Shown: positions 2 through 17,584, counted from the first letter of the stretch. The stretch: DNA of 64,000 nt from Candidatus Xenobium occultum (GCA_002423485.1 DIWH01000011.1:72667-136666); one strand, 5' to 3'. Notes: generated from the letters alone by a model not told the origin. Numbers and translations are program-made.

Positions 2-646
2 GGCTTTGCCACGGGAACCGCCGGCCTGGGAGCCGGGGGCGAAGACTTCCAGACCCTGCACGCCTTCCTGGATCGCTTCCCCATCCGACTGGAAGTTCCC
101 ACGGCCTCGGGAACCAGCCACGTTCCCGGAGAGCCCAGCAACCTGGACCGGGCCTTCCTGGTGGCCCTGGGACGCGAAGAGGACCGCTTCACCTCAGGGA
201 GGAACTTCCCCGACCCTCCCGAGGAGGATCCTCCCGGGATCAACGACGTGCTTCTGCTGGGAAGGGCTGCGATGCAGGGGTTGCAGGATGGGACCCCGCT
301 CCTCTTCGAGCCCGAGCGCTTGGAGGTCTTCCATCGGCACTTCATGGACATCGCCCGAGGGCTGCAGGCCGATGCCGGCACCCAGGGCGCCCTCCTGGAG
401 CACGAGGGCATCACCTGGACCATCTCGCCCCGGAAGCTGCGCTCGCTGTTCAAGATCGCACTGGCCATGGCCATCCTGCGCGACGAAGAGTTCCTGTCCG
501 GAGAACCGGGAGCAGCCCGGGTCCAGGGCCCGGGGGTCGACGGGCTGGAGGCCTTCAGCGCCATCTGGGACTCTCCAGCAGCCCAGAGGCGACTGCGCAA
601 CCGTCTGGAGTCCACCCTGCGTCGGGCCGAGAAGGACCTGGGCTGA
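2..646 (+). CDS. C-terminal fragment (cut by window edge) of an AAA+ ATPase, MoxR/AAA_5-like
   Basis: Frame 2 is open from the window edge to TGA at 644-646. It contains LHAFLDRFPIRLEVP, resembling the LDRF...YP sensor-2 region of MoxR-type ATPases, followed by a helical lid-like tail. Its stop overlaps the next start (TGATG). Confidence 0.45.
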   Translation, partial: GFATGTAGLGAGGEDFQTLHAFLDRFPIRLEVPTASGTSHVPGEPSNLDRAFLVALGREEDRFTSGRNFPDPPEEDPPGINDVLLLGRAAMQGLQDGTPLLFEPERLEVFHRHFMDIARGLQADAGTQGALLEHEGITWTISPRKLRSLFKIALAMAILRDEEFLSGEPGAARVQGPGVDGLEAFSAIWDSPAAQRRLRNRLESTLRRAEKDLG

Positions 647-2262
647 TGAATCCGTCGGAGGCCCTGGCCCGTTCCCTGGTGGCCGACGCCGCGTGCGCCG
701 GCCTTCCTGGGAGTCCGGCTGCCCTGGACAAGGCCCTGGAGTGGGGGCAGCGAGCGGCCGAGCAGGGGCACGCCCTGCCGTTGCCCCTCCTGCTGGATCT
801 GACCGGGTGGCTGGAGCGTCAGGAGGGGCAGAGCCCCGGTGGGACTGAAGAGCTGGCTCCGCCGGAGCCCGGCCCGGCGGGATTCGACCGCTGGGTCTGG
901 GAGCTGGCCGGCCTGATCCGACACTTCGTCGGCGGCCGCTTGGAGGACCTCAGCCTGTACCAGACTGAGCTCAGCTCCGCCGAACTCAGCCGCCTGGCCA
1001 ACCCCGACCACCCCCGCGCCGGCGAGCCCGACAGCCTGCCCTTCCTGCTGTGGGCTGTGCGACCCGTTCCGGTGGAATCGCACGCTCGCCTGGCGGAAGC
1101 CTGCAGGGTCCTGCGCCGCTCCGAGCCGTTGAAGGCGGACCTGGACCGAGCCTGGCGCGGGCCCCGCCCCCCGGCCGGCGACCCCCGTTGGCGGTGGTGG
1201 GCCGACATGGGCGACGGACCCTCGGGGGACCCCTCGGTTGCAGGCCTGTGGAGCCGCTTCGCCAGCGAAGCCGGAGCCGACTGGCTGCACGAGCGGCTGG
1301 ACCATGTCTCCGCTGAGGTCTACCTGAGAGGCGGGGCGATGAACCCCACCTCGCAGCAGGCCCGGCGCCTCGACTTCCTGCAGCGCCGGCGCAGCGAGGT
1401 CTTCTTCACCCCCATGACCACATGCTATGAAGAGTTGGACCCCTTTCAGGGCGCCATCGCCCTGTCCACCCTGAGCATGGGTGACTACGGGATGTACAAG
1501 ATCGCCAACCGGAGCGCGGTCTGGATCTCCAATCCCCCGTCTGCCCGTCCCTCCCACAAGGTGCACGTGCACCTGACCTGGACGACCCGTTTTGAAGGCC
1601 TCCTGCAGTCCGCCGTCTGGCCGATCCCGGCGGAGGGCTCCGATGAACCTGACCGCCTGGAGGTTCCGGCAGCCTCCCTGCTGCAGGGGATCGTGGCCCT
1701 GGTGGTGGATGACTGGCGCTCGGCCCTGCGCCATCTGCCTGTCCAGTTCCACCTGCATCGCGACGCGGAGGACCAGGAGGGGCTCAACCTGGGCGTCGGC
1801 GGCCCCCGTTGGAGAGGACCCGGGGCCCGGACGGGCCTGCCCCCGGCTCACGTCGTCGCCAGGATCTTCCTGCGCAATTCTCTGGCCGACCTGGCGTCCG
1901 GCGAGGCCGACTGGTCCGTCCCCGCCGGTTCGGCGGACAACTCCTACCACTACTGGTTCGGCTTCATCCTGGCCAACGACCTGCGCAGCCTGGGCTTCCG
2001 TGAATCGCGCGAGTCCGACGGCACCACGCCGGGCTGGGAAGGCCCCCCGGGTCGACTTCCGGATTGCCTGAGCCGTCTGGTCCTGCTGGACCCGGGACTC
2101 GGTGTGGACTGGACGATCCTCGATATCCGACGTGAGCGAAGCGATCTTTTGTCCCCCCGGACCCGCTGCCCTGAACCGGGAGGTGAACCCCACCCCTACC
2201 CTGCCTTGCGAAGAGCGACCCTGGACGTGCTGCTGGAGGCACTGGACCGTCGAATGACCTGA
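646..2262 (+). CDS. hypothetical protein (538 aa), no recognisable motif
   Basis: ATG at 646 overlaps the upstream stop. GC3-rich frame. Followed 20 nt later by the next gene, which has a GGAG-type RBS. Confidence 0.6.
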   Translation: MNPSEALARSLVADAACAGLPGSPAALDKALEWGQRAAEQGHALPLPLLLDLTGWLERQEGQSPGGTEELAPPEPGPAGFDRWVWELAGLIRHFVGGRLEDLSLYQTELSSAELSRLANPDHPRAGEPDSLPFLLWAVRPVPVESHARLAEACRVLRRSEPLKADLDRAWRGPRPPAGDPRWRWWADMGDGPSGDPSVAGLWSRFASEAGADWLHERLDHVSAEVYLRGGAMNPTSQQARRLDFLQRRRSEVFFTPMTTCYEELDPFQGAIALSTLSMGDYGMYKIANRSAVWISNPPSARPSHKVHVHLTWTTRFEGLLQSAVWPIPAEGSDEPDRLEVPAASLLQGIVALVVDDWRSALRHLPVQFHLHRDAEDQEGLNLGVGGPRWRGPGARTGLPPAHVVARIFLRNSLADLASGEADWSVPAGSADNSYHYWFGFILANDLRSLGFRESRESDGTTPGWEGPPGRLPDCLSRLVLLDPGLGVDWTILDIRRERSDLLSPRTRCPEPGGEPHPYPALRRATLDVLLEALDRRMT

Positions 2263-2282
2263 ACCGGGAATCGGAGACGAGC

Positions 2283-4391
2283 ATGCCCACCTACGCGGAA
2301 TTCAAGACCATCAAGGACCTGGTGCTGGGACTGCACGTGTGTTCCGGGCCTCGCGTCCGTTTCCCCGAGCAGTTCCTCCAGGCCTCGGACGGGCGCTGGA
2401 TCGTAGAGATCTCGCCCGAGGATCTGGACCTCAACGAGATCCAGGCCGTCCTGGACTCCCTGGCCCCGTCCGACCCGGGTCGGGTCCGGATTGCCTCGGC
2501 GGCCCCCTCCGGGCTCTCGCGACCCATCGTCTCGGTGCTGGATGGGACGTGGGTCTATCGCGACCCGCAGAAGTCTTCCGGCCTCCCCGTCGACCCCGCG
2601 CTCGAGCCCGGCCTGCATCCCCACCGGGAGGGCGTGCGCTACATCCTGGCTGCCCGGGACGCAGCGGGGGCCCAGCGCCTCCTGGAGAACCTCTCCGAAG
2701 CCCTGGTGACGGGGATCCGGGCCTTTTCCTGGCCCCAGGCCACCGAACCAGCCCCCGGAACACATCGGTTCTGGTTGGTCACCTCCAACGATCCCCCCGT
2801 CCCCTACCACGTCCTGGCGGAGGCGGAGCGGGCCTGGTGGGGGCCCCTCGTCACGCGCCCCTGCCAGGTCTTCGTCCAGTGGCCCTACTCGCTGGACCTG
2901 GCTGCCCGACTCCTGGAGCGAATCCCATGGGGTCCGGAAGGCTCGGTGGTGCTTCTGAACCATCCCCGAGAAGCCGCCGGGGACCCGGCCGTGGTGGTGC
3001 TCGAGCCTCCGGGGCAAGCCCGCGAGTTCAGCCCCCTGATCGACGTGGCCGACCTGAGGCTGCGAGGTGAAATGAGCCAGCCGGCCCGTGGCCAGGCCGT
3101 GCCCCCCGCTGCCGAATTCGAGATCCAGGTCCGCCTGGTCGAGGGAACGGAGCGTTCGACCCGGGCTCGGCGCCTGGCCGATCTCAAGCACGAGATCCGG
3201 GCCCTGCAGTTGGCGCTGGCCAGACTGGAAGGGGAACCGGGCGAGCCTCGCTCCCTGGGCGAGGGCCCGTCGGAACCTCTCTTCCTGTTCGCCGGGGATC
3301 CCCCCAAGGGCCCGGGACAGCCGGCCATGCTCCCCGAACCCCTGCAACGGCTGAACGTGGAATGGACCGACCAGCCCCGCGAGTTGGGACGACTGCGCTA
3401 CCTGCAACTCAGCCCCGGCTCACTACCCAGGCACCTGGTCGCCCCGGACCGGGTGGTCCACGTGCTGACCACCGCGGCCGCATTGGGAGAGCCGGGAGAG
3501 GAACCTGGGGCCGACCTGGTCAGCCTGCGCCTGCGCCACGACCTGGCCGAGGGAGAGGGGCTGACGCGCTTCCACCTGCTTCGGGAGTGGGCACGATTCG
3601 GGCTGCGGATCTTCCTGCCGGCCGGGCAGGCCCTGAGCATCTACCCCGACCTGCCGACCTGCACCACGGCGGCCGACAAGCTGGCCTCGGTGCTGCTGCC
3701 CCAGGACGACGGCGACCGGCAAAACTGGTGCGTGCTCTTCTCGCGCGGGCCAGAAGGAAGGACCCAGGTCTGCCGGGTCCGCGGCCCCTTCCGGCGACTG
3801 GTGGAGGCTTCCGAGTGGAAGTGCCGGCTGGACGTGCCCCTTCCCGAGGACTGGGCCGGACGACTGGAGATGTATGCCGCTGAGCAGGCCGACCAGGTGT
3901 TCCTGGAATCCCTGGAGAGGGCCTTCCGCGACGAGGCCCGGGGACATGCCGTCGAGCACCTCGAGACGCGCCGCCGCGAGCTGGCCGGAGAGCTCCAGCA
4001 GACGCACCTGGCCGACCAGGCCGCCCTGCGGGAACAGGCCGGCACCCTGGAAGCGCGAATCCGAGCCGACCGGGAATGGCTCGACCTGGTCGAGGCCGGA
4101 CGCCAGGAGCTCCGCACCCGGGCCGAAGAGATGGCCCGGGTTCAGGCCGACCTGGAGGGGGCGTGCCGTCGCCTGGAACGCGAACTTGAACTGGCGGAGG
4201 GTCGAGCCCAGGGGCTGCGCGAGGTCGCGACACGGATCCTGGACGGTCTGGAGGGACCGGACGAGACCACCCGCCGGGCTCGCGTCCGCACGGAGGAGCT
4301 GCGTCGCTCGCTGAACGAGCTTCTGACCCGACCGGCGGCGCCCCGCCGACGGGTTCGCGGCTGGAGGAGGTGGCTCGGCCGTGGGCAGTGA
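2283..4391 (+). CDS. hypothetical protein (702 aa) with long C-terminal coiled coil (E/R/L/A-rich heptads, last ~170 aa)
   Basis: ATG 2283 preceded by ggagacgag. Continuous GC3-rich frame. The C-terminal region has low-complexity coiled-coil-like composition. Confidence 0.6.
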   Translation: MPTYAEFKTIKDLVLGLHVCSGPRVRFPEQFLQASDGRWIVEISPEDLDLNEIQAVLDSLAPSDPGRVRIASAAPSGLSRPIVSVLDGTWVYRDPQKSSGLPVDPALEPGLHPHREGVRYILAARDAAGAQRLLENLSEALVTGIRAFSWPQATEPAPGTHRFWLVTSNDPPVPYHVLAEAERAWWGPLVTRPCQVFVQWPYSLDLAARLLERIPWGPEGSVVLLNHPREAAGDPAVVVLEPPGQAREFSPLIDVADLRLRGEMSQPARGQAVPPAAEFEIQVRLVEGTERSTRARRLADLKHEIRALQLALARLEGEPGEPRSLGEGPSEPLFLFAGDPPKGPGQPAMLPEPLQRLNVEWTDQPRELGRLRYLQLSPGSLPRHLVAPDRVVHVLTTAAALGEPGEEPGADLVSLRLRHDLAEGEGLTRFHLLREWARFGLRIFLPAGQALSIYPDLPTCTTAADKLASVLLPQDDGDRQNWCVLFSRGPEGRTQVCRVRGPFRRLVEASEWKCRLDVPLPEDWAGRLEMYAAEQADQVFLESLERAFRDEARGHAVEHLETRRRELAGELQQTHLADQAALREQAGTLEARIRADREWLDLVEAGRQELRTRAEEMARVQADLEGACRRLERELELAEGRAQGLREVATRILDGLEGPDETTRRARVRTEELRRSLNELLTRPAAPRRRVRGWRRWLGRGQ

Positions 4392-4569
4392 GGCTATCGG
4401 CCGGCCGCTCCCGAGAAGGCTCCCGGATCCCCCGGTCGGCCCGGGGGATGACCTGAACCATGCCTTGGAGCGGGTTCGAAACGAGTTTGAAAGCCTCCAG
4501 GCGCGCTGGGAGGTCTTCCAGACGATGCCAGGGGAAGAGGAAGGGTCCGAGGGGAGGAGGACCTCGTGA
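4381..4569 (+). CDS. possible small protein (62 aa), GTG start
   Basis: It fills the 175-nt gap between two coupled genes. GTG 4381 follows a GGAGGAGG-like tract. Its stop forms a GTGA overlap with the giant gene start at 4566. GC3 bias is moderate. Confidence 0.3.
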   Translation: MGSEAIGRPLPRRLPDPPVGPGDDLNHALERVRNEFESLQARWEVFQTMPGEEEGSEGRRTS

Positions 4570-7500
4570 GGCCAGACCCGCGTTCCAGGGCAACGGGCAA
4601 CCCGATCCACGTCCTGCTCCCCGCCCTGCTGGCCCTGGGACTTCCCGTCCTGGGGGTCCTGGCCCTGGCCTTGCTGCCGGTGGACCGATACTGGATCCTG
4701 GGCTACGAAGGCCTGCATTTCTACCGCATCTGGCCCTGGCTGATGGTGGCGGCCGCGGCCTGCATCCCCCTGGCGGGAGCCTGGATCCATTCCCGCCACG
4801 GTCGACCGCTGCACCTGCCCGGGATGGCCACCCTGGCCGTCCTGACCATGCTCCTGATCAGCCTGCGTCTGGCCACCTCCTGGAGCCTGGAATGGCACGC
4901 CGGGATGGTCTGGCTGTCCCTGCTGCCCCTGGCCGGCGCCAGCCTCACCCTCGCCCTGGGCTTCCTGGCCTTCAGCGAAGTCTGGAGGCGGGTCTGCAAC
5001 GGGCCCGTGGTGCGCACCTTGACTGGACGCCTGGGCCCGGGCCGCCTTCCGGCGCTACGGGTCGTGCCCGAGCGTTCGCGTTATGCCCGGGGGCGCCCCT
5101 GGGGCTCCCCACACCGCCTGGCGGTCCTGAACGCCAATTTCCAGCTCACCCTGGCCCGTGTGCACTCGGTGGATTCCCCCTATCCCCCGGACGAGGCGGA
5201 CCTGCGCCGGCTCTTCCGGGCCGGCGGGGCCCTGGTCGAGTGCCTGCTGCGCCGCTGGCCTGAGCAGGGCCCTGGATTCCCCTGGATCCTCGGGCTGCCT
5301 GACCGGGCCCAGCGCAGAGACCTCAACCTCCGGACCCTCCTGGACATGATCGCGGTTGGCCTGGAGAGGCTGCGACCCGCCAACAGCCCTGTGGACCCGA
5401 GCCAGGATGCCCTGGCCACCGAGTTGCGCCAGGTCCTGCCCCAATGGATGGAGGCCCTCGAGGTGCTGGCAGGTCCCCAGGCTCCCGGACTGGCCCTGGT
5501 GCGAAGGCTGGTCCGGGCGGGTCTGGACGGCTCGGCCGCCACGCGCGGGTGCGTCGCCGAGATCGTCGAGGAAGCGCGGAATTCCCAGACGTCGGATGCC
5601 GGGCCGAACCTGTCGGGTTGCTGTCCGGCCCTCTGGCTCCTGGTGGTTCCGGACGAGGTGCCGGGCGAACTGGTCCACGACGTCTGGCGCGAACTCTTCC
5701 AACGGGTCCCAGGCGACGGGGCGGAGTCCGCCCCTCCCCTGGCCTGCGAAATCCTCCAGACGCAGCATCTCTGGCGCCTGGTCGACCGACGCCTGGCCCA
5801 CCTCCCCCCTTTGCAACGCTCTGGCTTGGCGAGGCAGAAGGTGATGTTGGAAGAAACCGCCGGCCGATTGCAGGAGCGGGTGGACCTCCTGATGGGCCAA
5901 CACGGAGAGGCGCGCAACCCGTCGGAGGTGACGGCCCGGGCCGGCGCTGGAGTCCCCTCCTGGCCCTACTGGGAGGTCCGCAGGACCCCGGCCGTCCGAC
6001 GCCTGGTCGGGGGACTGGCGGCCCTGGCGCTCGCGCCGGTCCTGCTGGCCCTCCTGGCCAGCAACCCGTACGTCAGCCCCCTGGGAGCCAATACCATCGA
6101 CCACGTCCAGGATCCCCGTTGGTACCGTCCGACCCTGACGGGGGACTGGTTCGACCTGGCCCACAGCAAGAACTGGCTGGCCCTGGCCTCTCGGGAAGGC
6201 GACCTGACGCTCTTCAACACCCGCAGCCGGCTGCCTCGGGAAGCCAACCTGGAGAGTCCAGCCCGGGACGTAGCCGGCGGCATGCAACCGGGAAGCTTCC
6301 TGGCCATCACCCGCGACCAGGGGGTCGAGGAGGTCACCCCCGGGGCCGGGCCCCTGGGAGCCCGGGTCGACCTGGAGACCTGGCTGCCTGCCCGCGAACG
6401 CTGGGGGTGGCCGGGCCCGGGAGGGTTCGAGGCGCGGGCGGTCCTGGCCAATCTCCTGGATGAACGCGGCTGGCTGCTGGCCGTCCGGGGACGGGGTCTG
6501 GCACGGTATGAGTTCAGGAGCGAGCCGAACGGCCGACGGGTCCGAAGCAGGTCCTGGCAGTATGGCTCCTCACCGCACCTGGATCTGGACCAGGTGGCCC
6601 TGACCCTCCAAGGCGCCTGGTACTCCGAAGGCCAGGGCGGACTGGGGTTCGCAGACCTCGACACCCTCGACCCCGTGGGCACACGCAGCGTCTCGACCCC
6701 CCCGATCCGACGACTGGATGCCAACTTCGACCAGGACTGGGCCAGCGCCACCGACAAGCGCGACGGGCTGTGGCTCTTCGACCCCTCGATCGAGCGCTGG
6801 GCCGGGGCCTTCTTCGGACACGTGGAGCGCAGGACCACCTTGAAGTCCCTGGACTCGGTGCGAGCCGCGCGACTGGATGGAGATCTGGCCTGGCTGGGCG
6901 CCCGGGAGGGCCTCTTCGCCTACGACCTGGTCGGCAGGCGGCTCCACCCGGCTGTTCCCGGGTTCTCCAGCACCGCGCTGGAACCCCGGCCAGGCTCGGA
7001 CGCCGAGACTCCCCGGTCGGTCCTGGCGGGCGGTCCGCTGGGCCTGGTCCGGGTCTCGGCCGGGCCTCAGGACTTCCAGACCCGCAGACTGGACTCGGAG
7101 CCGGTGACCAGCCTGGCCCTGGGAGAGGACTCTTCGACCGCCGCATGGCTGGCCGATGGGAAGAGCCTGAAGGTCCTCAAGGAACCCTTCGGGGAGGGCC
7201 GACCCGCGACCTGGGTGCCTGCAGCCGGGGGACCGCGCATGACCGAGTCTCCGACCGTCCTGGATGCACGGCGGGCCAAGGACGGTTTGCTGCTCCTGAC
7301 CCGGGCGGGGGTCATCTACTATCAGGGGACCGAGCACGCCTACCGGGACGCCTCTCGCACCCGGGTGCCGGCTGTCCCTTCCAAGCGCTTCTCCGAGAGG
7401 ATCGAGACCCTGAAGAGCCTCGACGACGTCGATGTCACCGAGGGGCGCCTGGCCATCCTGGGAGACGGGCGACCCCACCTCCTGCAGGAGGACGCCGAGG

Positions 7501-10500
7501 CCGATGCCCCCCTGTGGCGGGCCCTGGACCCCCTGCGCCTGGGCCGACCGGTGCAGGTGGCCCAGGCAGGGGGCCTGGTCTTTGGCCTGGGCGGCGACGG
7601 GCGACTCTTGCGCTACCAGGAGGCCGAGGTCCAGACCTGCCCGGCCACCCCCGGGGGACTTCCCCGGGGGGACTCGTCGCGCTTCCAAACCCGAGGGGAC
7701 CTGTTCGAGCGAAGCGACGAGACCTGGCGGGTCAGCTTCGTGCACGAGGACCGCCTGTACACCTACGACTCGAAGTCGGGGAGCAGCCGCTCCCAGGCCT
7801 TGGCCAGCCACCTCCGAGGTCGGGTGAGCCAGGTCCGCCTGGTTGGCGAAGATCCCTTCCTGCTGGCGGACCAGCGCGTGTTCACCGATCAAGGGGAACC
7901 ACTCTTCGGATTTGGAAGCCTCCCGTTTGCGCCGACCCAGGTCTCGGCCCTGAGCCCGGGAGCGGACTGGCAGACCGTCCTGGTCGGAGGACCCGAAGGC
8001 CGGGTCCTGCAATACCGCTGGAACGACGCTTCCTGGCGTCCGGTCGGGGGACGGCCTCTCCCCGTCAAGAGCCCCCGGTCGACGGTGGAGGAAGTCCTCC
8101 AGACTCCGGGTGCGGTCCTGACCCGGGCAGAGGGCAGGGTCTTCCGCGGCACTTCCCGGGGTTGGGCGCCCGTCCCCGACTGCCGACGCGCCGCCTTCCC
8201 TCTGGCGGGCCTCTCCGGGTGGGGCCTCTTCCGCGACCACGTCCAACGGATGGACGCCAGGTCCAGTCGACCCGAAGGCCCCTTCTACTGCACCGGGATG
8301 ACCGAGGCCCGCCCTCGCGGCGGATGGCGCGCAGCCTGGCAGGACGAGTCGGGGCTGGTCCTGTTCTCTGAAGAAGGTTCGTATGCCACCTATGATCCGG
8401 ACACCGACTCGTGGAGTTCGGGCAGGCTCCAGGGTCTGAAGGAACTGGACGGCTTCACCCCTTGGAAAGGCGGAATGATGGTCCTGCAAGGGAAGAGCGT
8501 GCATCGCATCGTGCGCGACCCGAATCGCGGCCCGCTCAAACCCGAGCTCTTCGCGACGGCCCCGGGCCCGGCTCGCGGGATATCCCTGGCCAGCACCGGC
8601 TCGAAGCTGCGCATGTCCTACCTGCACGGCGGCGACGTGGTGGTTCGCGAGTGGGAACAGCCCCGGGGCCTGCCGGGTGAAGTCCGCCGCCGGCAGCGCC
8701 CGATTCCCGAAGGATTCGACGCTGCCGACGTGGTGGCGGCCACGCCGGCCGGTCGAGGTGCGCTTTTCTTCGACAGCCGGGGAGCCTGCGCCAGCTACGA
8801 TCCCCTGCTGGGACGTTGGGGACTGCTGCGCCAGGCCCGACCGGGCCAGACGGTCTTCGCCTGGGTCTCCTCCCCGCGGCCGGCCCTGGTCCTGCGCACG
8901 GAAGACAACCGGACCCACACCTTGCGGACCCTGCCGGACCTGACGCTGTCCGAGCGCGTGTACGAAACACCTCCCGAGCAGGTCCTGGAGCGGTTGGAGT
9001 GGGAAGGTTGCACATGGAAGGCCCCAGGCGAGGGGACGCTGCTGGAGACCGAGACGCTGCGGATCACCCGCCAGCAGGGACAGACCCGCTATGAAGCCGG
9101 ACGAGACCGGCAATGGATGCCCCTGCACCTGAAATCCACGGGATTTGCGGAGGACCAGCCCACGACGGTGCTGATGACCTCCAACGGCACCCCCTGGATC
9201 CTGGCGGGAGAAAGGCTCTTCCAGGTTCAGCCCAACGAAGCCTCCAAAGGCCTGGCCTTCACGGGTCGAGTGCTCCCGGGTCCTGTCCAGGCCGCCGGGG
9301 CCCTGGCCCAGGTCGAGATCCGGACGCAAGACCCTGGGGGCCTGGCCCGGTGGACCGAGCCGGAGCCGGGAGCCGCCTTGCAGGCCATCCCTGCCGACTC
9401 CAGCACTCCCCTGGCCCGCTCCACGATAGCCGGACACGAGGTCGAATGGGTGCTGGATCCCGCCCAGAAGGGAATCCCTGCCCAGGTCTCGGTGATTCCC
9501 AGGCATCGGGACGGACGTCCGACCGCCTTCACGGAAGAGGGTCGGCTGGACTTCCAGACCATCCAGGATCTGGCCGTGATGAACGATCGGCTGTTACTGG
9601 CCACCCCGACCGGGGTCGTGGTCCGCGACGCCCAGAGCTTCGCCTTCCGCGAGCTGCATGCCGGCCCGCCGGTCCGGGCCCTGATCCGCGCCTTCGGGCC
9701 CGAACGCCTGCTGGCCCGCCTGGCCGACGGGCGCGTGGTGGACTGGCAGGAGCAGGGGTTGGGAGGCGAGGACCTCCGGGGGACCCCCCAGGGTACCTCC
9801 CGAGTCGAGATGGGCCCCGTCACCTGGAGCCTGCTGATTTCCGGAAAACCCGGGGTCGGCTCGGGACTGGCCCTGACCATGAAGGAATCGCCCGTAGAGT
9901 GGCGACCGAGCCAGGACGGCTGGCTGCCCGAGATGGACCGGGTGGCGCGCCTGGATCGCCTGGCCTCGGCGGAACGGGCCCTGGTCCTGGGAACCGGGGC
10001 CGGCTCCTGGCGACTGGACCCGGACAACCTGCGGGCCTTCGAACCCGTTCCGGCGGTGGAACCCGAGAAGGTCCAGGGAGGCCACGCGGCCCTGGAGGTG
10101 ACTGCCGAAGCCCCGGTCCTGACCCTGCGGGCCCCGGACGACGGGCCGGTCTTCAACCAGGGGAGATTCTACTTCGATGTCGGCGGGGGCCTGCGCGGCC
10201 TGGGCTCTTCCATCTACACGCTGGTGCCGGGACGGGGCCTGGTGGGCCGGGACTCGGCCGCCCCCAACCACATCCTGGGCTACTGGCCACTGGATCGGCA
10301 GATGCCGGACGGACGGCCCGCCCTGGCCGCCGAGGACGGTCGACTCTCCCTGGCCTTCCAATCCTCCTCTCCCTCCCAGCGGACCCGATGGTTGCTGCCC
10401 CCGGAGGAGGGGGCTCGCTGGCGGCGGGATCCGAACCCGAATCGACCCGAGCGGGTCGAGTACGGGCCCGTCACCTGGCGTGGTTGGCGGGACGGACGAA

Positions 10501-11978
10501 GCGGCTTCCAGGCCGTGGTGGCCCACGATGGCCGGGACGAGGTCCTGCGGGAATGGTGGAGCCGGGACCGCTTCGCCTGGGACGACGTGCGCTCCGTGGG
10601 GGTGCTGGGCTCGCACACGGTCGTGGCCCTGACCCCGGCCGGCCTGGTCCTGTGGGACCGGGACTCGGGCTCCTTCCTGGAGGCCGACATGATCCTCCAG
10701 CCGGGCTTGGAGAGGCTCCTACCCGCCCGCCGCCAGGGACGCCGGGCAGGTCTCCTGGCAATGGGACCTTCCGGCCTCTTCCTCCTGAGCGCCGGGGAGT
10801 CGCAGCAACCAGGCCTCACCGTCGCGACAACCTCCGACTACGAACACCAGCCCGGACTGGAGCTGGCACGGGTTGCGGGCGAACCGGAGCCCTTCGTCAC
10901 GCTGGTGGAACGCTGGCGCCGCGGCGACCCCAGAAGGCCCCAGGAAGCGGCCCTGGTCTCGTCGATTCCGGACTTTGAGCCCTCTCATCTCCTCACGGAC
11001 GGTCAGTTCGTCTTCGACCAGGGGCAGGCGGCCTGTCCTGTGGCCAAGGGCCCCCTCTGGGCGGTCCACGCCCCGTCAGGTCCGCGCAGCCTGGTCACCC
11101 TCAACCGACTGCTGGACTCTGCCCGGGACGGCCGACCCCGGTTGCTCCTGACCCGCGTCCTGCCTGCTCCCGCCCGATTCTCGGCCATGCGCTCCCACCC
11201 GGAAGGCTTCCTGGCCCGGGAGGTTCAGGGCAAATGGTGGCTGGCCCGGATCGCGGGGCCCGAAATCCGTTGGAGCCGACTGGAGTCCCTCGACAAGATG
11301 CCGGAACTCCGCGCCGGGGACCAGGTCGCCCTGGACGTGCAGCGCCTTTCCTGGTCCGCCACTCCACGCCACCTGGGAGACCAGGGAGTCGCTCTGAGGG
11401 TCACCCCCCCGGGCTATCCCCTCTTCGCGACCCTGGACCAGAAGACCGTGCTGGCCTTTGACGGGTTGACGTCCATCTCGGCCTTCCCCAAGACCCGCAG
11501 TCTGGCCCTGGGCACCCTGGGCGGCGTCTACACGGTCCCGTTCACCGGAAACGGAAGAGCCGTGCTGACCTTGCAGGATCCCCGGGCCCGGTTCACCTTC
11601 CGCTGGAAACCCTCGGACGAAAGCGATTCGGACTGGTTGGCGGATGTCCGAGAGGTGCGCCATGACCTGGACGGGACGCTGCACGCCCGATTCGCCCACG
11701 GGTTGGAGGTGGCGCGCCAGGGCCAGGACGGGACCTGGACCCGGGCCGAACGGATGCCCGAGGACGAGAATCGGAGCCCCCGCCACCGAATGACGGTGAT
11801 GGGAGGAAGACTGCTGCTGGACGGGCGGGCCCTGGTCACCAGCAACGACCTGCCGGCAGGACGACGAGACCTGGTGGACATCGTGGGCAAAGCCTATGAC
11901 CCCGAGGACAACGCCCTGTGGCTGGCGACCCGGAACCAGGGACTCTTCAAGCTGGTCCTGGACCGCCTGCTGGAATGA
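4566..11978 (+). CDS. giant membrane-anchored repeat protein (2470 aa); 4 N-terminal TM helices, ~330-aa loop, 5th TM helix, then ~1970 aa of W/G/R-rich beta-propeller-like repeats
   Basis: GTG 4566 is 7 nt after AGGAGG (4554-4559). The open frame is uninterrupted and strongly GC3-biased. Hydrophobic stretches lie at residues ~15-150 and ~478-498. Recurrent motifs (DGRL, GLFxYD, LWLATRNQGLFKL) resemble two-component-regulator propeller repeats. Confidence 0.75.
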   Translation: MRPDPRSRATGNPIHVLLPALLALGLPVLGVLALALLPVDRYWILGYEGLHFYRIWPWLMVAAAACIPLAGAWIHSRHGRPLHLPGMATLAVLTMLLISLRLATSWSLEWHAGMVWLSLLPLAGASLTLALGFLAFSEVWRRVCNGPVVRTLTGRLGPGRLPALRVVPERSRYARGRPWGSPHRLAVLNANFQLTLARVHSVDSPYPPDEADLRRLFRAGGALVECLLRRWPEQGPGFPWILGLPDRAQRRDLNLRTLLDMIAVGLERLRPANSPVDPSQDALATELRQVLPQWMEALEVLAGPQAPGLALVRRLVRAGLDGSAATRGCVAEIVEEARNSQTSDAGPNLSGCCPALWLLVVPDEVPGELVHDVWRELFQRVPGDGAESAPPLACEILQTQHLWRLVDRRLAHLPPLQRSGLARQKVMLEETAGRLQERVDLLMGQHGEARNPSEVTARAGAGVPSWPYWEVRRTPAVRRLVGGLAALALAPVLLALLASNPYVSPLGANTIDHVQDPRWYRPTLTGDWFDLAHSKNWLALASREGDLTLFNTRSRLPREANLESPARDVAGGMQPGSFLAITRDQGVEEVTPGAGPLGARVDLETWLPARERWGWPGPGGFEARAVLANLLDERGWLLAVRGRGLARYEFRSEPNGRRVRSRSWQYGSSPHLDLDQVALTLQGAWYSEGQGGLGFADLDTLDPVGTRSVSTPPIRRLDANFDQDWASATDKRDGLWLFDPSIERWAGAFFGHVERRTTLKSLDSVRAARLDGDLAWLGAREGLFAYDLVGRRLHPAVPGFSSTALEPRPGSDAETPRSVLAGGPLGLVRVSAGPQDFQTRRLDSEPVTSLALGEDSSTAAWLADGKSLKVLKEPFGEGRPATWVPAAGGPRMTESPTVLDARRAKDGLLLLTRAGVIYYQGTEHAYRDASRTRVPAVPSKRFSERIETLKSLDDVDVTEGRLAILGDGRPHLLQEDAEADAPLWRALDPLRLGRPVQVAQAGGLVFGLGGDGRLLRYQEAEVQTCPATPGGLPRGDSSRFQTRGDLFERSDETWRVSFVHEDRLYTYDSKSGSSRSQALASHLRGRVSQVRLVGEDPFLLADQRVFTDQGEPLFGFGSLPFAPTQVSALSPGADWQTVLVGGPEGRVLQYRWNDASWRPVGGRPLPVKSPRSTVEEVLQTPGAVLTRAEGRVFRGTSRGWAPVPDCRRAAFPLAGLSGWGLFRDHVQRMDARSSRPEGPFYCTGMTEARPRGGWRAAWQDESGLVLFSEEGSYATYDPDTDSWSSGRLQGLKELDGFTPWKGGMMVLQGKSVHRIVRDPNRGPLKPELFATAPGPARGISLASTGSKLRMSYLHGGDVVVREWEQPRGLPGEVRRRQRPIPEGFDAADVVAATPAGRGALFFDSRGACASYDPLLGRWGLLRQARPGQTVFAWVSSPRPALVLRTEDNRTHTLRTLPDLTLSERVYETPPEQVLERLEWEGCTWKAPGEGTLLETETLRITRQQGQTRYEAGRDRQWMPLHLKSTGFAEDQPTTVLMTSNGTPWILAGERLFQVQPNEASKGLAFTGRVLPGPVQAAGALAQVEIRTQDPGGLARWTEPEPGAALQAIPADSSTPLARSTIAGHEVEWVLDPAQKGIPAQVSVIPRHRDGRPTAFTEEGRLDFQTIQDLAVMNDRLLLATPTGVVVRDAQSFAFRELHAGPPVRALIRAFGPERLLARLADGRVVDWQEQGLGGEDLRGTPQGTSRVEMGPVTWSLLISGKPGVGSGLALTMKESPVEWRPSQDGWLPEMDRVARLDRLASAERALVLGTGAGSWRLDPDNLRAFEPVPAVEPEKVQGGHAALEVTAEAPVLTLRAPDDGPVFNQGRFYFDVGGGLRGLGSSIYTLVPGRGLVGRDSAAPNHILGYWPLDRQMPDGRPALAAEDGRLSLAFQSSSPSQRTRWLLPPEEGARWRRDPNPNRPERVEYGPVTWRGWRDGRSGFQAVVAHDGRDEVLREWWSRDRFAWDDVRSVGVLGSHTVVALTPAGLVLWDRDSGSFLEADMILQPGLERLLPARRQGRRAGLLAMGPSGLFLLSAGESQQPGLTVATTSDYEHQPGLELARVAGEPEPFVTLVERWRRGDPRRPQEAALVSSIPDFEPSHLLTDGQFVFDQGQAACPVAKGPLWAVHAPSGPRSLVTLNRLLDSARDGRPRLLLTRVLPAPARFSAMRSHPEGFLAREVQGKWWLARIAGPEIRWSRLESLDKMPELRAGDQVALDVQRLSWSATPRHLGDQGVALRVTPPGYPLFATLDQKTVLAFDGLTSISAFPKTRSLALGTLGGVYTVPFTGNGRAVLTLQDPRARFTFRWKPSDESDSDWLADVREVRHDLDGTLHARFAHGLEVARQGQDGTWTRAERMPEDENRSPRHRMTVMGGRLLLDGRALVTSNDLPAGRRDLVDIVGKAYDPEDNALWLATRNQGLFKLVLDRLLE

Positions 11979-11988
11979 ACCGCTCGTC

Positions 11989-12849
11989 TCAGCCTCCGGA
12001 AAGGGCTCCCAGGACGCTCCCTTCTGAAGTGCAGGGGCCGACGTCTCCCAGGCCGCTGCCATCGAAGGTGGGAATGAACCGTGCGTCGGCGGACTGCAGG
12101 TCCTGGACCCATCCGTCCAGGTCGGGGAGCCCGTCCAGGTAATCCAGGACCTGCTCATACTCCTCGGAGGTCAGGGTCCGGTTCAGTTCAGGGAAGGCCG
12201 CCAGGTCGCCGACCGGGGTGTACTGGGCCATGATGGACACCGGAGTCCCCGCGGGAAGCGTGGCCAGGAAGTCCAGGGCGGCCAGGGTGTTGGGAAGGTT
12301 CCCGGGCAGCACCAGGTGGCGGACCACCGTGCCCCGCGCCAGCAGGCCCTCCTCGTCGAAGAGAGCCGGCCCCGTGGCCTCTCGCATGGCCTGGATCGCG
12401 GCCCGCGCCGTCTCGGAATAGTCCTCCCGAGCGCTGTAACGCGCGGCCAGGCCGGGCGAGGCGTACTTGAAATCGGGCAGGAAGATGTCGACCCAGGGGG
12501 CGACCCGGGCCACCAGGTCCACGGTTTCGTAGCCGCTGGAGTTCCAGACCACGGGGATGCTGGGGCGAGCCAGGGCCAGGGCCTCCCGGATGGATTCGGC
12601 GAAGTGGGTGGGTGTCACCAGGTTGAGGTTGTGGGCTCCCTGCTCTTCGAGTTCCCGGAAAACCTCGGCCAGGCGAGGAATCTCCAGGTTCCAGCCGCGT
12701 CCTTGGCGACTGATCTCCTGGTTCTGGCAGAAGGCACAGCGCAGGCGACAGCCCGAGAAGAAGACCGTCCCCGACCCCCGGGTCCCGCTCAGGCAGGGTT
12801 CTTCCCAGTGATGCAGGCCGGCCCGGGCGACGCGAACGACCCGGCTCAC
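11989..12849 (-). CDS. PflX-like radical SAM protein (pyruvate formate-lyase activase homologue), N-terminally short
   Basis: HHWEEPCLSGTRGSGTVFFSGCRLRCAFCQN carries the CxxxCxxC radical-SAM motif, and the downstream sequence matches the COG1313/PflX family. Start is taken as GTG 12849, overlapping the upstream TGA (GTGA). The usual Cys-rich N-terminal region of PflX is absent in this frame. Confidence 0.6.
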   Translation of the reverse strand: MSRVVRVARAGLHHWEEPCLSGTRGSGTVFFSGCRLRCAFCQNQEISRQGRGWNLEIPRLAEVFRELEEQGAHNLNLVTPTHFAESIREALALARPSIPVVWNSSGYETVDLVARVAPWVDIFLPDFKYASPGLAARYSAREDYSETARAAIQAMREATGPALFDEEGLLARGTVVRHLVLPGNLPNTLAALDFLATLPAGTPVSIMAQYTPVGDLAAFPELNRTLTSEEYEQVLDYLDGLPDLDGWVQDLQSADARFIPTFDGSGLGDVGPCTSEGSVLGALSGG

Positions 12850-14093
12850 GAGCGCCGCTCTCCAGCCCCCCCCACCAGACAACCCTCCAGCGCCAGGGCC
12901 ATCGCCTCGGCCGTCGGATAGCGCCGGTCGGGATCGCGCTCGGTGGCCGTCAGGCAGACCTGGTCCAGGTTCTCGGGGACTTCGGGCCGCAACCTGCGGG
13001 GCGACATGGGATTGCCGTGGAGGATCTGCGCCAGCATGCCGGTCACCCCCTCGCGCCGCAAAGGCAGGTCCCCCACCAGCATCTCGTACAGAATCAGGCC
13101 CAAGGCGTAGAGGTCCGTGCGGCCGTCCACCAGGTCGGACTCGGTTTGAAGCTGCTCGGGCGCCATGTAGGCGGGAGTGCCCAGGGTGCACCCCGGTTGG
13201 GTCAGGCGAAATGCGGCCTCCAGCAAACGCGAAATCCCGAAATCCACGAGACGAACCCTTCCGCTGGGTTCGATCAACAGGTTGCCCGGCTTGAGATCGC
13301 GATGGACCACCCCCGCCTGATGGACCACCTGGAGAATCCGCGCCACGTCGCGGGCGATGCGGGCCGCGCGAAGAACCGGCAGGGAGGCGAAGGCCAGGAT
13401 CCGGTCCAGATCCCGGCCGGGGACCAGCTCCATGGCCAGGTGGGGAAACGGTTCGGTCTGGAAGTCCCAGACGGGCACGATCTGGGGATGGGCCATGCGC
13501 GCCATGATTCGGGCCTCCTGGCGGAACCGGGCGACGTGGGCCGGCGAGAGCATCTCCTGAGGAAGGACCTTCAGGGCCACCTCCCGCTGCAGGGAGGTGG
13601 CCAACGCGCGGAAGACCTGCCCCATCCCACCTTCGCCCAGGACCTCCAGGATCCGATAGCGTCCCAGGGTCTGGCCAGGAAGCCCCCGGAAGGGCCTGCC
13701 CCCCGAATCCGGGGCCGCCCCCCGGGTGGCGCGCAGGCAGACCTGGATTCGGGCCAGCAGCACGGATGGATCGACCGGCTTGAGCAGGAAATCATCGGCG
13801 CCAGCCTGGAGGAGCTGGACCTCCAGATCGGGCCCGGCCCGCGTCCCCAACACCAGAATCGCCAGGTCCTCCGGGGAGAAGCGGCGGCGCAGACCGCGCA
13901 CTGCGTCCAGAAGGGGATGCAGAGAATCCAGGACGACCAGGTCCACCTGCTCGGCCAGGAGGGTCTCGAGGGTCTGCCCCGCTCCGACAGCCCGCAGGAT
14001 CCCGTATCCCTGGTCCTGGAGACTCTGAACCAGACCCTCCAGGGCCACGGGGTCCTCCCCTGCCAACAAGACACGCCTGGAGTTGCCATCCAT
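12846..14093 (-). CDS. response-regulator receiver domain fused to Ser/Thr protein kinase
   Basis: ATG 14093 gives MDGNSRRVLLAGEDP..., a REC domain with DSLHP and KP motifs, followed by a kinase with VALK, HRDLKPGN, DFG and APE motifs. The ORF-track start at 14279 adds an implausible Pro/Arg-rich leader. Confidence 0.7.
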   Translation of the reverse strand: MDGNSRRVLLAGEDPVALEGLVQSLQDQGYGILRAVGAGQTLETLLAEQVDLVVLDSLHPLLDAVRGLRRRFSPEDLAILVLGTRAGPDLEVQLLQAGADDFLLKPVDPSVLLARIQVCLRATRGAAPDSGGRPFRGLPGQTLGRYRILEVLGEGGMGQVFRALATSLQREVALKVLPQEMLSPAHVARFRQEARIMARMAHPQIVPVWDFQTEPFPHLAMELVPGRDLDRILAFASLPVLRAARIARDVARILQVVHQAGVVHRDLKPGNLLIEPSGRVRLVDFGISRLLEAAFRLTQPGCTLGTPAYMAPEQLQTESDLVDGRTDLYALGLILYEMLVGDLPLRREGVTGMLAQILHGNPMSPRRLRPEVPENLDQVCLTATERDPDRRYPTAEAMALALEGCLVGGAGERRS

Positions 14094-14520
14094 GGGGGTG
14101 CATTTCCACCGCGCCCCTGGAGAGGCCTGCCGAGACGAGGTCACGACTGGCAGCGCGGGTGTCTGCGAATCATGGATCCGGCTAAAAAATGCGCATGCAC
14201 CGGACAACGAGAAGGGTCGCCGGAGCGACCCTGGTGGTGGGCGGGCCTGAGACGGCTGCTTCCGGCCGGACGACTCCATTCTTGTTTCGGGCCGATCGAC
14301 GACAGGCGCTGACGCGTCTCAACTCCCGCCCAGATCATCCTGGCAGAATTGCCGTCGGGGAACATTGCCGGAACGTTGCCGACAGGACAAAGATGCAGAT
14401 GCGCTTTCCTGCCTGGGTGCACATGCAAGAATCTCCCAGGAACGGGTCATGGTCTCGAGGTCTGAAGACCCCTTCGACGGAGCCAATCCGGACTCGCGCC
14501 GACCGGTCCCCTGAGAAATC

Positions 14521-14550
14521 GAAAAGCCCGCCACCTGTGGCGGGCTTTTC
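14521..14550. terminator. palindromic hairpin (gcccgccac ctgt ggcgggc) flanked by A/T runs, usable from either strand; terminates tRNA-Ala transcript
   Basis: Perfect 9-bp stem with a 4-nt loop. On the minus strand it is followed by TTTTC, on the plus strand by TTTTCG. It lies 2 nt downstream of the tRNA-Ala 3' end. Confidence 0.5.
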
Positions 14551-14552
14551 GT

Positions 14553-14628
14553 TGGTGGAGCCAGTCGGACTCGAACCGACGGCCTCCTCCGTGCAAGGGA
14601 GGCGCTCTCCCAGCTGAGCTATGGCCCC
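14553..14628 (-). tRNA. tRNA-Ala(TGC)
   Basis: 76-nt cloverleaf with anticodon loop CTTGCAC, G3:U70 identity pair, T-loop TTCGAGT and encoded CCA. Confidence 0.9.
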
Positions 14629-14698
14629 AGGGTTCACCGGTAAAAACTGCCCCTATAGAAATGGGAGCGGCGGACCGCTCCCACTTCCAAGGCAGTTG

Positions 14699-14775
14699 TG
14701 GTGGGCTTAGCTGGACTCGAACCAGCGACCTCGTCCTTATCAGGGACGCGCTCTAACCACCTGAGCTACAAGCCC
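14699..14775 (-). tRNA. tRNA-Ile(GAT)
   Basis: 77-nt cloverleaf with anticodon loop CTGATAA, T-loop TTCGAGT and encoded CCA. Confidence 0.9.
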
Positions 14776-14790
14776 GTGCCCGAGTTCGGA

Positions 14791-14818
14791 GATTATCACA
14801 GGCCGAAGCCCCTGTCAA
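14791..14818 (-). promoter_or_regulatory. sigma70-type promoter for the tRNA-Ile/tRNA-Ala unit
   Basis: On the minus strand there is a consensus TTGACA (plus-strand tgtcaa at 14813-14818), a 15-17 nt spacer, and GATAAT/TAATCT around 14792-14797. This sits ~16 nt upstream of the mature tRNA-Ile 5' end. Confidence 0.35.
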
Positions 14819-14937
14819 GGAAGATCCGGAATCCGATCCCCGAACGGGTTCCGGATTTCCCTCCCCTGCCGGGTGAGCCATCTCAAGCGCCTGGAGTCCG
14901 GCGCAGGGAGGAGGACCGGCCGCGAGAAGTCTCCCGC

Positions 14938-15561
14938 ATGCCCTTCCAGTCCCAATCCTTCCAGCAGAGGGCCGAAGACTCGGTGGCGGCCATCGAGGCC
15001 GTCAGCCGAGCCGAGGTGGTGGTCGTGGTGGCAGGCCGTTCCGGCAGCTACGCCGACGTCGACCTGCTGTGGGGGATCCTGGCTGGATTGACGACGCTGG
15101 GACTCGTCCTGCACAGCCCCTGGAACTTCCATCCCGACCTGGTGCTGCCGGATGTCGCGCTCTTTGGATGGCTGGCCTGGATGGCCTCACGTCGCCTGGA
15201 CCCCCTCCGCCGGGCGCTGACCTCTCGGAAGCGTCGCTGCGGTCAGGTGGAAGCCGCAGCCCGCCAGGCCTTCATGGAGGAGGGCGTCTCGGCCACCCGG
15301 GAACGCACGGGAGTCTTGGTTTACCTGTCATTGCTGGAACGGGAGGTGGTCCTTCAACCGGATCTGGGTCTGGACGGCCTGGTGCCCCGGGCCGTGTGGA
15401 ACCGGTTCCGGCACGCCCTGCGCGGATGCCGGAAATTGAAGGATCTGGAGGAGTGCTTCTTCCAGGGGATGGCAGATCTGGCCCAGCACCTTCCCCGGCA
15501 TGCCCCGGCCGGCGCCCAGGATCCCGACGAAATCCCCAACACGCCGAGGCTGCGGCTTTGA
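14938..15561 (+). CDS. hypothetical protein (207 aa) with one hydrophobic segment
   Basis: The ORF-track frame 14698..15561 begins inside tRNA-Ile. The plausible start is ATG 14938 (MPFQSQSF...). RBS is weak and the start is uncertain. Confidence 0.4.
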   Translation: MPFQSQSFQQRAEDSVAAIEAVSRAEVVVVVAGRSGSYADVDLLWGILAGLTTLGLVLHSPWNFHPDLVLPDVALFGWLAWMASRRLDPLRRALTSRKRRCGQVEAAARQAFMEEGVSATRERTGVLVYLSLLEREVVLQPDLGLDGLVPRAVWNRFRHALRGCRKLKDLEECFFQGMADLAQHLPRHAPAGAQDPDEIPNTPRLRL

Positions 15562-17045: not shown

Positions 17046-17203
17046 GTCGGGCGGCGGCGGTTCACATCCTGGCAACACTCTTGTAACAAGTGGTTCGGAA
17101 CCTGAATCCGCGCTCTGTGGTAACATGAACGGGGTGCATGGACTTCAGACGAAGCCCATGCATACCGCCCGAACTTTGTCAGTCACGATGAAAGGGGAAC
17201 GCG

Positions 17204-17578
17204 ATGCCAGAGGACCATCGGGATAAAATCGAGCAGATCCGGGCCCGTCGTGGTCGCGACAACGTCCAGATCGGCTACAACCCGTATGACCCGCAGCAGC
17301 AGGTCGGTGGCACTGCGCCTACGGGCGTCCAGGCCATCGGGACCGAGAGCGAAGGCGCCCCCCTCCTGGGAGCCGACTTCAAGAGCCCCTGGCTCCGCGA
17401 CCGGGTCACCCTGAGCCTGGACGGTCAGATCGCCATGATCGAGCAGCGGGCCCACGGCCGCACCTCCATCGCCGATCTGGGCTACAGCAACCGGATCCCC
17501 ATCCTGCCGCTCCGGCCAGGAATGTTCGTGAAGATCGAGCCGCCGGGGACCTACCGCCTGGTCTACAACAACCGCTGA
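17204..17578 (+). CDS. hypothetical protein (124 aa)
   Basis: ATG 17204 is preceded by aaaggggaa. Compact ORF with GC3 bias. Confidence 0.5.
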   Translation: MPEDHRDKIEQIRARRGRDNVQIGYNPYDPQQQVGGTAPTGVQAIGTESEGAPLLGADFKSPWLRDRVTLSLDGQIAMIEQRAHGRTSIADLGYSNRIPILPLRPGMFVKIEPPGTYRLVYNNR

Positions 17579-17584
17579 GCCGGA

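Follow-up and report, generated by a model that had tools for sequence, protein, structure and literature searches.

A conserved MoxR-centred operon of an uncultured bacterium: a candidate reduced variant of the predicted MoxR-vWA ternary systems

The described systems that stand closest to the operon reported here are the MoxR-vWA ternary systems, of which Kaur et al. 2020 defined four classes (PMC7159879). In the bp class, a bpMoxR ATPase occurs with a vWA domain that is strictly followed by a propeller of ~4 blades and often stands after a long helical region; the third component comprises a globular domain, a transmembrane (TM) segment, TPR and propellers, and extra unclassifiable alpha and alpha+beta proteins are present without a conventional effector (PMC7159879). 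The FtsH class has a related MoxR in which a GXXXTAKS P-loop, held in common with the bp class, is often present, together with a highly divergent vWA, which the simple type places behind a large all-alpha domain. Its third component carries a pair of FtsH-type AAA domains, the N-terminal of them inactive, and several helical proteins are unique to the class (PMC7159879). In both classes the vWA may be without the metal-binding aspartates (PMC7159879). Here we examine an operon at the start of a 64,000-nt stretch of DNA from Candidatus Xenobium occultum (GCA_002423485.1 DIWH01000011.1:72667-136666; ~70% GC), hereafter the window, in which the end of a MoxR ATPase gene and four further open reading frames (ORF2 to ORF5) follow one another on the + strand. 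We treat this locus as a new reduced variant of the predicted MoxR-vWA ternary systems, set apart from the published classes by their descriptions.

The operon is real and conserved, and it comes from an uncultured bacterium. The five ORFs that an earlier reading of this DNA, made from the sequence alone, had proposed are all real on the + strand, with the coordinates and overlaps it gave (Table 1). As read from the sequence, the ATPase/ORF2 junction is a TGATG at 644-648, a 20-nt gap with a GGAG precedes the ATG of ORF3 at 2283, the GTG start of ORF4 at 4381 lies 11 nt within the end of ORF3, and ORF4 and ORF5 overlap in a GTGA at 4566-4569. A GC3 > GC1 > GC2 coding pattern (G+C content by codon position, in a genome of 70% GC) holds in 5/5 frames, the micro-ORF included. 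No terminator-like site was found on the + strand at any gene boundary of the operon; the sole + strand match sits within ORF5, and the three such sites found in all in the region compare with 6.7 expected from shuffles, which makes them rarer than chance.

Table 1. Features of the operon, in window coordinates (pLDDT, predicted local distance difference test)
Feature	Position	Strand	Remarks
ATPase, C-terminal part (bpMoxR)	2..646	+	last 214 codons of a 450-aa AAA+ protein; ORF open at window start
ORF2, 538 aa, predicted co-chaperone	646..2262	+	start overlaps ATPase stop
ORF2 N-terminal all-alpha domain, aa 1 to ~280	646..1485	+	AlphaFold2, helices only, pLDDT mostly 85-97
ORF2 C-terminal alpha/beta domain, aa ~300-538	1543..2259	+	probable vWA-like fold without MIDAS metal site
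ORF3, 702 aa	2283..4391	+	
ORF3 globular part, aa 1 to ~535, mixed alpha/beta	2283..3887	+	seven homologues (word-indexed search)
ORF3 C-terminal ~170-aa coiled coil and basic tail	3888..4391	+	matches only coiled-coil proteins
ORF4, 62-aa small protein	4381..4569	+	start inside ORF3 end; stop overlaps ORF5 start
ORF5, 2470-aa polytopic membrane protein, predicted sensor	4566..11978	+	
ORF5 bundle of ~four TM helices, aa 16-137	4611..4976	+	hydropathy; positive-inside charge pattern in 7 orthologues
ORF5 cytoplasmic domain, aa 138-479 (~340 aa)	4977..6002	+	likely docking site for soluble components
ORF5 fifth TM helix, aa 480-498	6003..6059	+	hydropathy 2.48
ORF5 extracytoplasmic region, aa 499-2470	6060..11975	+	beta-rich, probably propeller-like; positive-inside rule

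An exact-sequence look-up of ORF2 returned the same locus on longer metagenomic contigs (L001-L003), from which the upstream sequence was recovered. The full ATPase gene, whose recovery had been proposed as a check, spans L002 8649-10001 and encodes 450 aa; it starts ~707 nt before window position 1, with its first 236 codons upstream of the window, and is preceded by a gene for a 553-aa protein (U553) that lies outside the window. The ATPase matches Pfam PF20030 bpMoxR at 2.1e-29 (102.5 bits, cut-off 27) and AAA_5 at 2e-13 (51 bits, cut-off 22), and both labels recur on the ATPase of every related locus. Walker A (GRPGVAKS), Walker B (FLDEV) and FLDRF motifs are present, and catalytic competence is predicted from these motifs only; the FLDRF falls in the C-terminal 214 aa, where an LDRF-type motif had been noticed before. 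Among PDB sequences the nearest solved relative is RavA (4e-16), and the genes for E. coli RavA and its partner ViaA show a stop/start overlap like that of ATPase and ORF2. RavA carries a LARA domain; the ATPase matches RavA over ~95 residues of the AAA core and nowhere outside. Plasmids searched by tblastn with the ATPase gave generic MoxR/RavA matches only, at ~30% identity. Taken together, profile and motif matches bear out that the first gene encodes a MoxR-class AAA+ ATPase, as had been proposed, and place it in the bpMoxR family. PF20030 stands for the MoxR domain of MoxR-vWA-beta-propeller ternary systems (Kaur, Burroughs, Iyer, Aravind 2020, eLife 9:e52696; PMC7159879). The description of the operon as uncharacterised and ATPase-driven stands, whereas the statement that it could be matched to no named system has to be given up.

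Four further species-level lineages (L009, L010, L004/L005 and L011, with ORF2 identities of 88, 73, 63 and 63%) carry the same block, U553-MoxR-ORF2-ORF3-ORF4-ORF5, and it is found in genomes of 49-70% GC. Because the chain of genes recurs in these four lineages and in the distant relatives described below, it is more than chance. In the 63% lineages a GGDEF gene replaces the upstream histidine kinase and a Metallophos gene replaces the convergent radical SAM gene downstream; since the flanks change while the six genes stay, the conserved unit consists of these six. The sequence-only reading had taken the genes for a translationally coupled operon of five: the coupling is borne out by the overlaps and by the same chain in other lineages, and the conserved unit gains U553 as a sixth gene. 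Across the close lineages, identity is 96-80% for MoxR, the most conserved gene of the block, 88-62% for ORF2, 87-53% for U553, 86-52% for ORF5, 85-53% for ORF3 and 68-37% for ORF4; in the lineage with ORF2 at 62%, the values are 80% for MoxR, 55% for ORF3, 54% for ORF5, 55% for U553 and 37% for ORF4. Such a gradient is typical of an enzyme with faster-evolving partners.

Neither ORF2 nor 62 relatives match any Pfam, NCBIfam or PADLOC model. Word-indexed searches, which covered 5.8 billion proteins, returned seven relatives each for ORF2 and ORF3. When 1.84 billion cluster representatives were searched exhaustively with an HMMER profile, the ORF2 family came to 88 representatives, of which 65 lie below 1e-30 and nearly all are 500-600 aa long. 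The representatives looked up are metagenomic (10/10), and the named ones are called 'hypothetical protein'. ORF2 start and MoxR stop overlap by 1-8 nt in 7/8 contexts, L020 having a 22-nt gap instead.

With a 7-sequence alignment, the AlphaFold2 model of ORF2 was unusable (pLDDT 42). A second model, of ORF2 (1-538) fused to ORF3 (1-545), used a 47-row alignment that included the exhaustive-search matches, and reached a pLDDT mostly of 85-97 in its ORF2 part. Here an N-terminal helical domain, with a weak Sel1 hint (E = 0.028), is followed by an alpha/beta region at ~300-510 and a long C-terminal helix, and the secondary-structure order of the C-terminal domain, b-a-b-b-a-b-a-b-a-b...a, is compatible with vWA. 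The best structural matches of the model containing this domain are vWA/MIDAS domains of MoxR-class partners: MDN1 MIDAS scores 9.2 (170 residues, 3.3 A), Rea1 MIDAS 8.1 and the NorD vWA of the NorQ-NorD complex 7.4, followed by CMG2 at 7.1 and BatB at 6.8, with Ku70/80, Integrator INTS13/14/6, integrin I domains and TFIIH Ssl1/Tfb4 lower. We assign the match to ORF2 because its C-terminal domain is the sole large confident alpha/beta region of the fused model (~240 residues; some 50-70 residues of ORF3 reach pLDDT >= 70), because its order is vWA-like, and because its position and architecture resemble those of ViaA, which consists of an N-terminal helical part and a C-terminal vWA. On the model, then, the vWA/MIDAS match very probably falls on the C-terminal domain of ORF2, and ORF2 itself is probably a vWA-type partner of MoxR.

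Such a vWA would be a cryptic one. Neither middle protein had shown a DxSxS MIDAS motif to the sequence-only reading, and the MIDAS residues are indeed not conserved in the ORF2 family: in a 62-sequence alignment, no conserved D or S stands at the positions of DxSxS and of the later T and D, where the sequence reads HLCWxxGxxG and LHRxxP. Conserved residues lie elsewhere, in the helix DDWR 355-358 and at G386, W389, R410, D445 and R522, with D356 of the DDWR helix and R522 invariant in the family. Of the hidden folds that had been suggested for the middle genes, a divergent vWA is probable in ORF2, and DUF58 matches neither. By hhalign ORF2 and ORF3 are unrelated, and propeller models match neither of them. 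The proteins in the structural matches differ from ORF2 in other respects: sequence identity to the Midasin/Rea1 MIDAS and to NorQ-NorD is 9%, their MIDAS is functional and that of ORF2 is not conserved, and their biology, ribosome assembly and nitric-oxide reductase maturation, is unrelated. ORF2 shows no sequence similarity to ViaA, and ORF3, ORF4 and ORF5 have no equivalents in RavA-ViaA.

More distant relatives place these genes in a larger setting. We compared the neighbourhoods of five loci (L016, L019, L020, L023 and JGI 3300047160; 49-59% GC where DNA was available), and all five share one fixed gene order: an AAA protein of ~1000-1260 aa, an AAA protein of ~600-660 aa, the U553 homologue, a further AAA protein of ~545-615 aa, two small proteins, then bpMoxR, ORF2 and ORF3, a small protein of 119-175 aa, and lastly a giant TM protein of ~2400 aa, which is divided into two genes in two loci. 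The check on gene neighbourhood that had been suggested earlier thus finds the order kept in four close lineages and in distant relatives. The first AAA protein is fused to a CHAT protease or a kinase in 3/5 loci (CHAT in L016, protein kinase in L020), and a single PF00004 domain, FtsH-like, is detectable in the C-terminal half of each AAA protein. No FtsH-like AAA gene of this kind lies within 10 kb upstream or 52 kb downstream of the block. The sole PF00004 gene in the 64-kb window is a housekeeping ftsH (FtsH_ext, Peptidase_M41) adjoining tilS, and the window therefore holds a reduced form, without the AAA/effector arm and the two small proteins.

Several observations on related loci may be recorded here. 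AAA proteins of the distant loci (L016 494-2305 and 4069-5733; L020 1-2402) give partial PADLOC matches to IetA and TRIP13, and the kinase domain of the distant relatives matches MkoA and PD-T4-6 of PADLOC, a domain-level likeness and not a system match. In a ~98-100% identical copy on L003 (JGI 3300001567, 11694-18114), ORF3 and ORF5 are broken into several ORFs, which could reflect assembly frameshifts or a decaying copy. The metagenome-assembled genomes (MAGs) of L011 and L019 are labelled 'uncultured Burkholderiales' and 'Bacillota bacterium', unlike the UBP9-type relatives; these labels could be binning or label artefacts, or point to real spread across phyla.

Set against the published classes, the locus resembles the bp class in its bpMoxR match, in a P-loop, GRPGVAKS, that is close to GXXXTAKS with V replacing T, in a probable divergent vWA after a helical region, in a membrane-spanning third component with a globular domain and a predicted beta-rich C-terminal part, and in extra unclassified linked proteins without a conventional effector. 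Unlike the bp class, it has no propeller on the vWA, for which the 538 aa of ORF2 leave no space; ORF5 has no detectable TPR, the partner proteins have no Pfam match, and ORF5, at ~2,470 aa, has five TM helices with a cytoplasmic domain between TM4 and TM5. The FtsH class, in its simple type, shares the layout of ORF2 (an all-alpha domain and, in ORF2 probably, a divergent vWA) and several helical proteins found nowhere else, and the distant relatives carry three ~600-aa PF00004 AAA proteins, one with the caspase-like CHAT or a kinase. Unlike that class, the window lineage has no such AAA gene at the locus, no NEFF1 and no Ubl/E1/E2/E3/JAB module; a giant TM protein is not in the class description, and the radical SAM neighbour is convergent and not conserved. 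Because the defining feature of each class is missing (the vWA-propeller of one, the FtsH-type component of the other), we file the locus under neither.

A likeness of another kind is offered by the Esr pathway of oral Actinobacteria, in which Patescibacteria epibionts are sensed by way of a surface beta-propeller protein, a MoxR, a vWA and a kinase/FHA relay (bioRxiv 10.64898/2026.09.08.750141). Both arrangements would lead from a surface-exposed, fast-evolving propeller sensor (predicted in the case of ORF5) through MoxR and vWA to a kinase-based output. The Esr sensor, however, is a secreted filament with Ig-like repeats and a WD40 propeller, whereas ORF5 is a polytopic membrane protein, and the vWA of Esr is canonical and accompanied by a kinase/phosphatase pair and FHA proteins; the likeness is one of logic.

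The giant protein ORF5 has orthologues at 86, 70, 54, 52, 34 and 26% identity, and neither it nor the giant proteins of three other loci have a Pfam match. It had been described as TM-anchored and as a repeat protein. A membrane protein it is, with ~five TM helices rather than a single anchor; as to repeats, neither BLAST nor hhalign profile-profile self-comparison found any internal ones. Charge patterns in seven orthologues place the N-terminus, the 76-81 loop and residues 138-479 in the cytoplasm and residues 499-2470 outside, and the cytoplasmic domain is bordered by strongly basic juxtamembrane stretches, with 10-15 K+R after TM4. Using a seven-sequence profile, the sole PDB sequence match is a Reg_prop blade (3ott/3va6, E = 9e-4) at aa 768-802, nt 6867-6971; the blade belongs to the twin-propeller periplasmic sensor of a hybrid two-component system from Bacteroides. 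The L019 orthologue has a weak Tectonin match (E = 0.014), and blade-like motifs of the form 'W[LI]..(x)..GL..[YF]D' recur by eye along ORF5. In 500-aa slices, ORF5 matched nothing in Pfam at E <= 10, and no TPR. A propeller-rich ectodomain is plausible. In L016 (12677-14164) and JGI 3300047160 (426 + 1693 aa) a break directly behind the cytoplasmic domain divides the giant gene in two; the TM bundle and cytoplasmic domain can therefore exist as a separate protein.

ORF3 contributes a part of low confidence to the fused model (pLDDT 30-79), and its globular part matches nothing in PDB or Pfam. Repeating the word-indexed search with an ORF3 profile yielded no further homologues, and hhalign against E. 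coli ViaA gave nothing. The conserved motifs are YRDPQ, YILAAR, FW.V.S..PP.P, WWGP, EWTDQ and H.LTT. The C-terminal stretch of ~170 aa gives coiled-coil matches only, as expected from the coiled coil that had been read at the end of the 702-aa protein. An invariant N-terminal MPTYA.F had made ORF3 a candidate Pro-1 tautomerase, which we rejected when distant members proved to begin MSTYALF, MNDYYAF or MRNAHQF. An ORF3 orthologue of 85% identity (P0009) bears the precomputed label PF28367.1, an entry absent from our local Pfam copy, against which hmmscan of P0009 gave no match; a very recent Pfam entry, PF28367, may already cover the ORF3 family. For ORF4, the reading frame is kept in 5/5 close lineages with the motif P.PPAG..LD..L..V..EF..L...W..F, and the other two frames hold stops; for these reasons the micro-ORF is a real conserved small protein. 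It has no Pfam, NCBIfam or PADLOC match, and at its position the distant loci have a small ORF of 119-175 aa without sequence similarity. U553 likewise matches nothing in Pfam, NCBIfam or PADLOC, nor, by profile, any PDB sequence.

Whether the operon is a reduced, six-gene, MoxR-centred system related to the predicted MoxR-vWA ternary conflict or threat-sensing systems is, in our judgement, an even call. In such a system ORF2 would be the vWA-type co-chaperone of a MoxR hexamer and, its MIDAS lost, would grip the client in some other way. The ~1,970-aa beta-rich exterior region of ORF5 would bind an external cue, be it an envelope-attached invader, a surface polymer or envelope damage, and the 340-aa cytoplasmic domain would pass the signal to the soluble proteins. 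ATP hydrolysis by MoxR, acting via ORF2, could then remodel or release a cytoplasmic assembly of ORF3, the small protein and U553, and this step may work as a switch with a threshold. For the fuller relatives, the predicted output is the effector fused to an FtsH-like AAA protein (CHAT protease or Ser/Thr kinase) together with the two further AAA proteins; since the AAA and effector genes are absent from the window locus, the output here would be ORF3 and U553 themselves or be encoded elsewhere.

Several findings weigh against this sensing system. The locus of the window lineage has no effector domain, and the label 'conflict system' is itself a prediction. Kaur et al. tie the ternary systems to a multicellular habit (PMC7159879), and the host here is an uncultured candidate-phylum bacterium (a UBP9-type MAG). 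PADLOC-DB 2.0 gave no match for MoxR, U553, ORF2-5 or the small proteins. The vWA assignment has to face the absent MIDAS residues, a Foldseek search of the PDB and BFVD in which the model found nothing significant, and the lack of a match of the ORF2 profile to PDB sequences and, by hhalign, to ViaA. Lastly, the ORF5 propeller is drawn from one 35-residue match (E = 9e-4) and motifs seen by eye, in a protein without a Pfam repeat or an internal repeat. The outcomes that had been named beforehand as contrary to an uncharacterised ATPase-driven system did not appear: no gene matches DUF58 or BatA-D, the ATPase is an AAA+ protein, and the gene order is kept.

The rival that survives best, though we consider it unlikely, is a dedicated assembly chaperone, in which MoxR-ORF2, with ORF3, ORF4 and U553, would fold, insert or mature ORF5 or its surface structure and no invader would be sensed, much as CoxD-CoxE, NorQ-NorD and RavA-ViaA serve the maturation of enzymes and large complexes. 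The window lineage has no effector domain, the giant protein is always the last gene of the cluster, and every characterised MoxR-vWA pair serves maturation or assembly (PMC7159879), each of which suits a chaperone. Simple maturation, however, hardly explains the CHAT and kinase-AAA fusions and the two further AAA proteins of the fuller relatives; moreover, the ATPase sits in the bpMoxR family and not in the CoxD, NorQ or RavA groups, and its partners evolve much faster than it does.

We regard as improbable a second rival, in which ORF5 would be an environmental sensor, for example of a glycan, that binds a nutrient or polymer and works in two-component signalling together with the neighbouring histidine kinase and the pair of REC-Ser/Thr-kinase genes. 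The only PDB sequence match of ORF5 is to just such a sensor, that of the Bacteroides hybrid two-component system, and in the three closest lineages the histidine kinase overlaps the start of U553, with REC-Pkinase genes on both sides. These kinase genes are nevertheless not kept, GGDEF and Metallophos standing in the 63% lineages and AAA genes in the distant loci, and the blade match is single and marginal. A divergent Bat aerotolerance operon (MoxR, DUF58, vWA-TM BatA/BatB, TPR BatC, BatD), which would likewise begin with a MoxR-class ATPase and end with a large membrane protein, is essentially excluded: no DUF58, VWA, BatA, BatD or TPR model of Pfam or NCBIfam matches any gene even at E <= 1, the ATPase is bpMoxR and not a Bat-type MoxR, and gene number and architecture differ.

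Returning to the threat-sensing system, we tentatively suggest a further step: the ORF2, ORF3, U553 and giant-TM families, together with bpMoxR, might constitute a distinct fifth MoxR class rather than a divergent bp or FtsH system. In this class a ~2,000-residue extracytoplasmic sensor with an inserted cytoplasmic domain would connect directly to a coiled-coil protein and an adaptor with a MIDAS-less vWA, and the class would exist in an 11-gene 'armed' form (three AAA proteins, CHAT or kinase output) and a 6-gene 'unarmed' form. If so, the fifth class would be a transmembrane, ATP-gated surveillance machine with four undescribed partner folds.

Among predicted bacterial conflict systems the MoxR-vWA ternary systems form one of the largest sets, and almost none has been tested; Esr, a 2026 preprint and the sole experimental case that we found, shows that such systems can sense an extracellular attacker. 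A six-gene form without the AAA/effector arm isolates the core of sensing and switching and could be reconstituted, and if the sensor reading is true it would offer a testable handle on how an external signal crosses the membrane to an AAA+ switch. A vWA-like partner of MoxR without a metal site also makes one ask how the client is held when a vWA has no MIDAS. Independently of function, the operon brings together four protein families that have no Pfam, NCBIfam or PADLOC model and are almost confined to metagenomes, including a 2,470-residue, outward-facing membrane protein.

Around the block, a dCache-HAMP-HisKA-HATPase histidine kinase overlaps the U553 start (ATGA) in the three closest lineages; we considered it as a member of the operon and rejected it as a lineage-specific neighbour, given the GGDEF gene in its place in other lineages. 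Two REC + Ser/Thr-kinase hybrid genes flank the block and, with the histidine kinase, lie at window 12849-14279 (-), L002 3350-4561 (-) and L002 4658-6931 (+); in the 63% lineages neither the hybrids nor the histidine kinase accompany the block. Convergent to the operon, 11 nt after the ORF5 stop, lies a radical SAM / Fer4_12 gene (window 11992-12849, - strand, its ORF extending to 13191). A radical SAM effector can form part of FtsH-class ternary systems; this gene was rejected as an FtsH-class peptide-modifying effector on account of its convergent orientation and of the Metallophos gene that replaces it in a 63% lineage (L004).

Elsewhere in the window, a tRNA-Ala(TGC) and tRNA-Ile(GAT) pair on the minus strand (14553-14628 and 14699-14775) stands alone. 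The usual place of such a pair is the 16S-23S spacer, and no rRNA match was found anywhere in the 64 kb. At 15500-17083 (+), a candidate ORF of 528 aa, with no Pfam match at E <= 1e-5, overlaps a 658-aa ORF in another frame.

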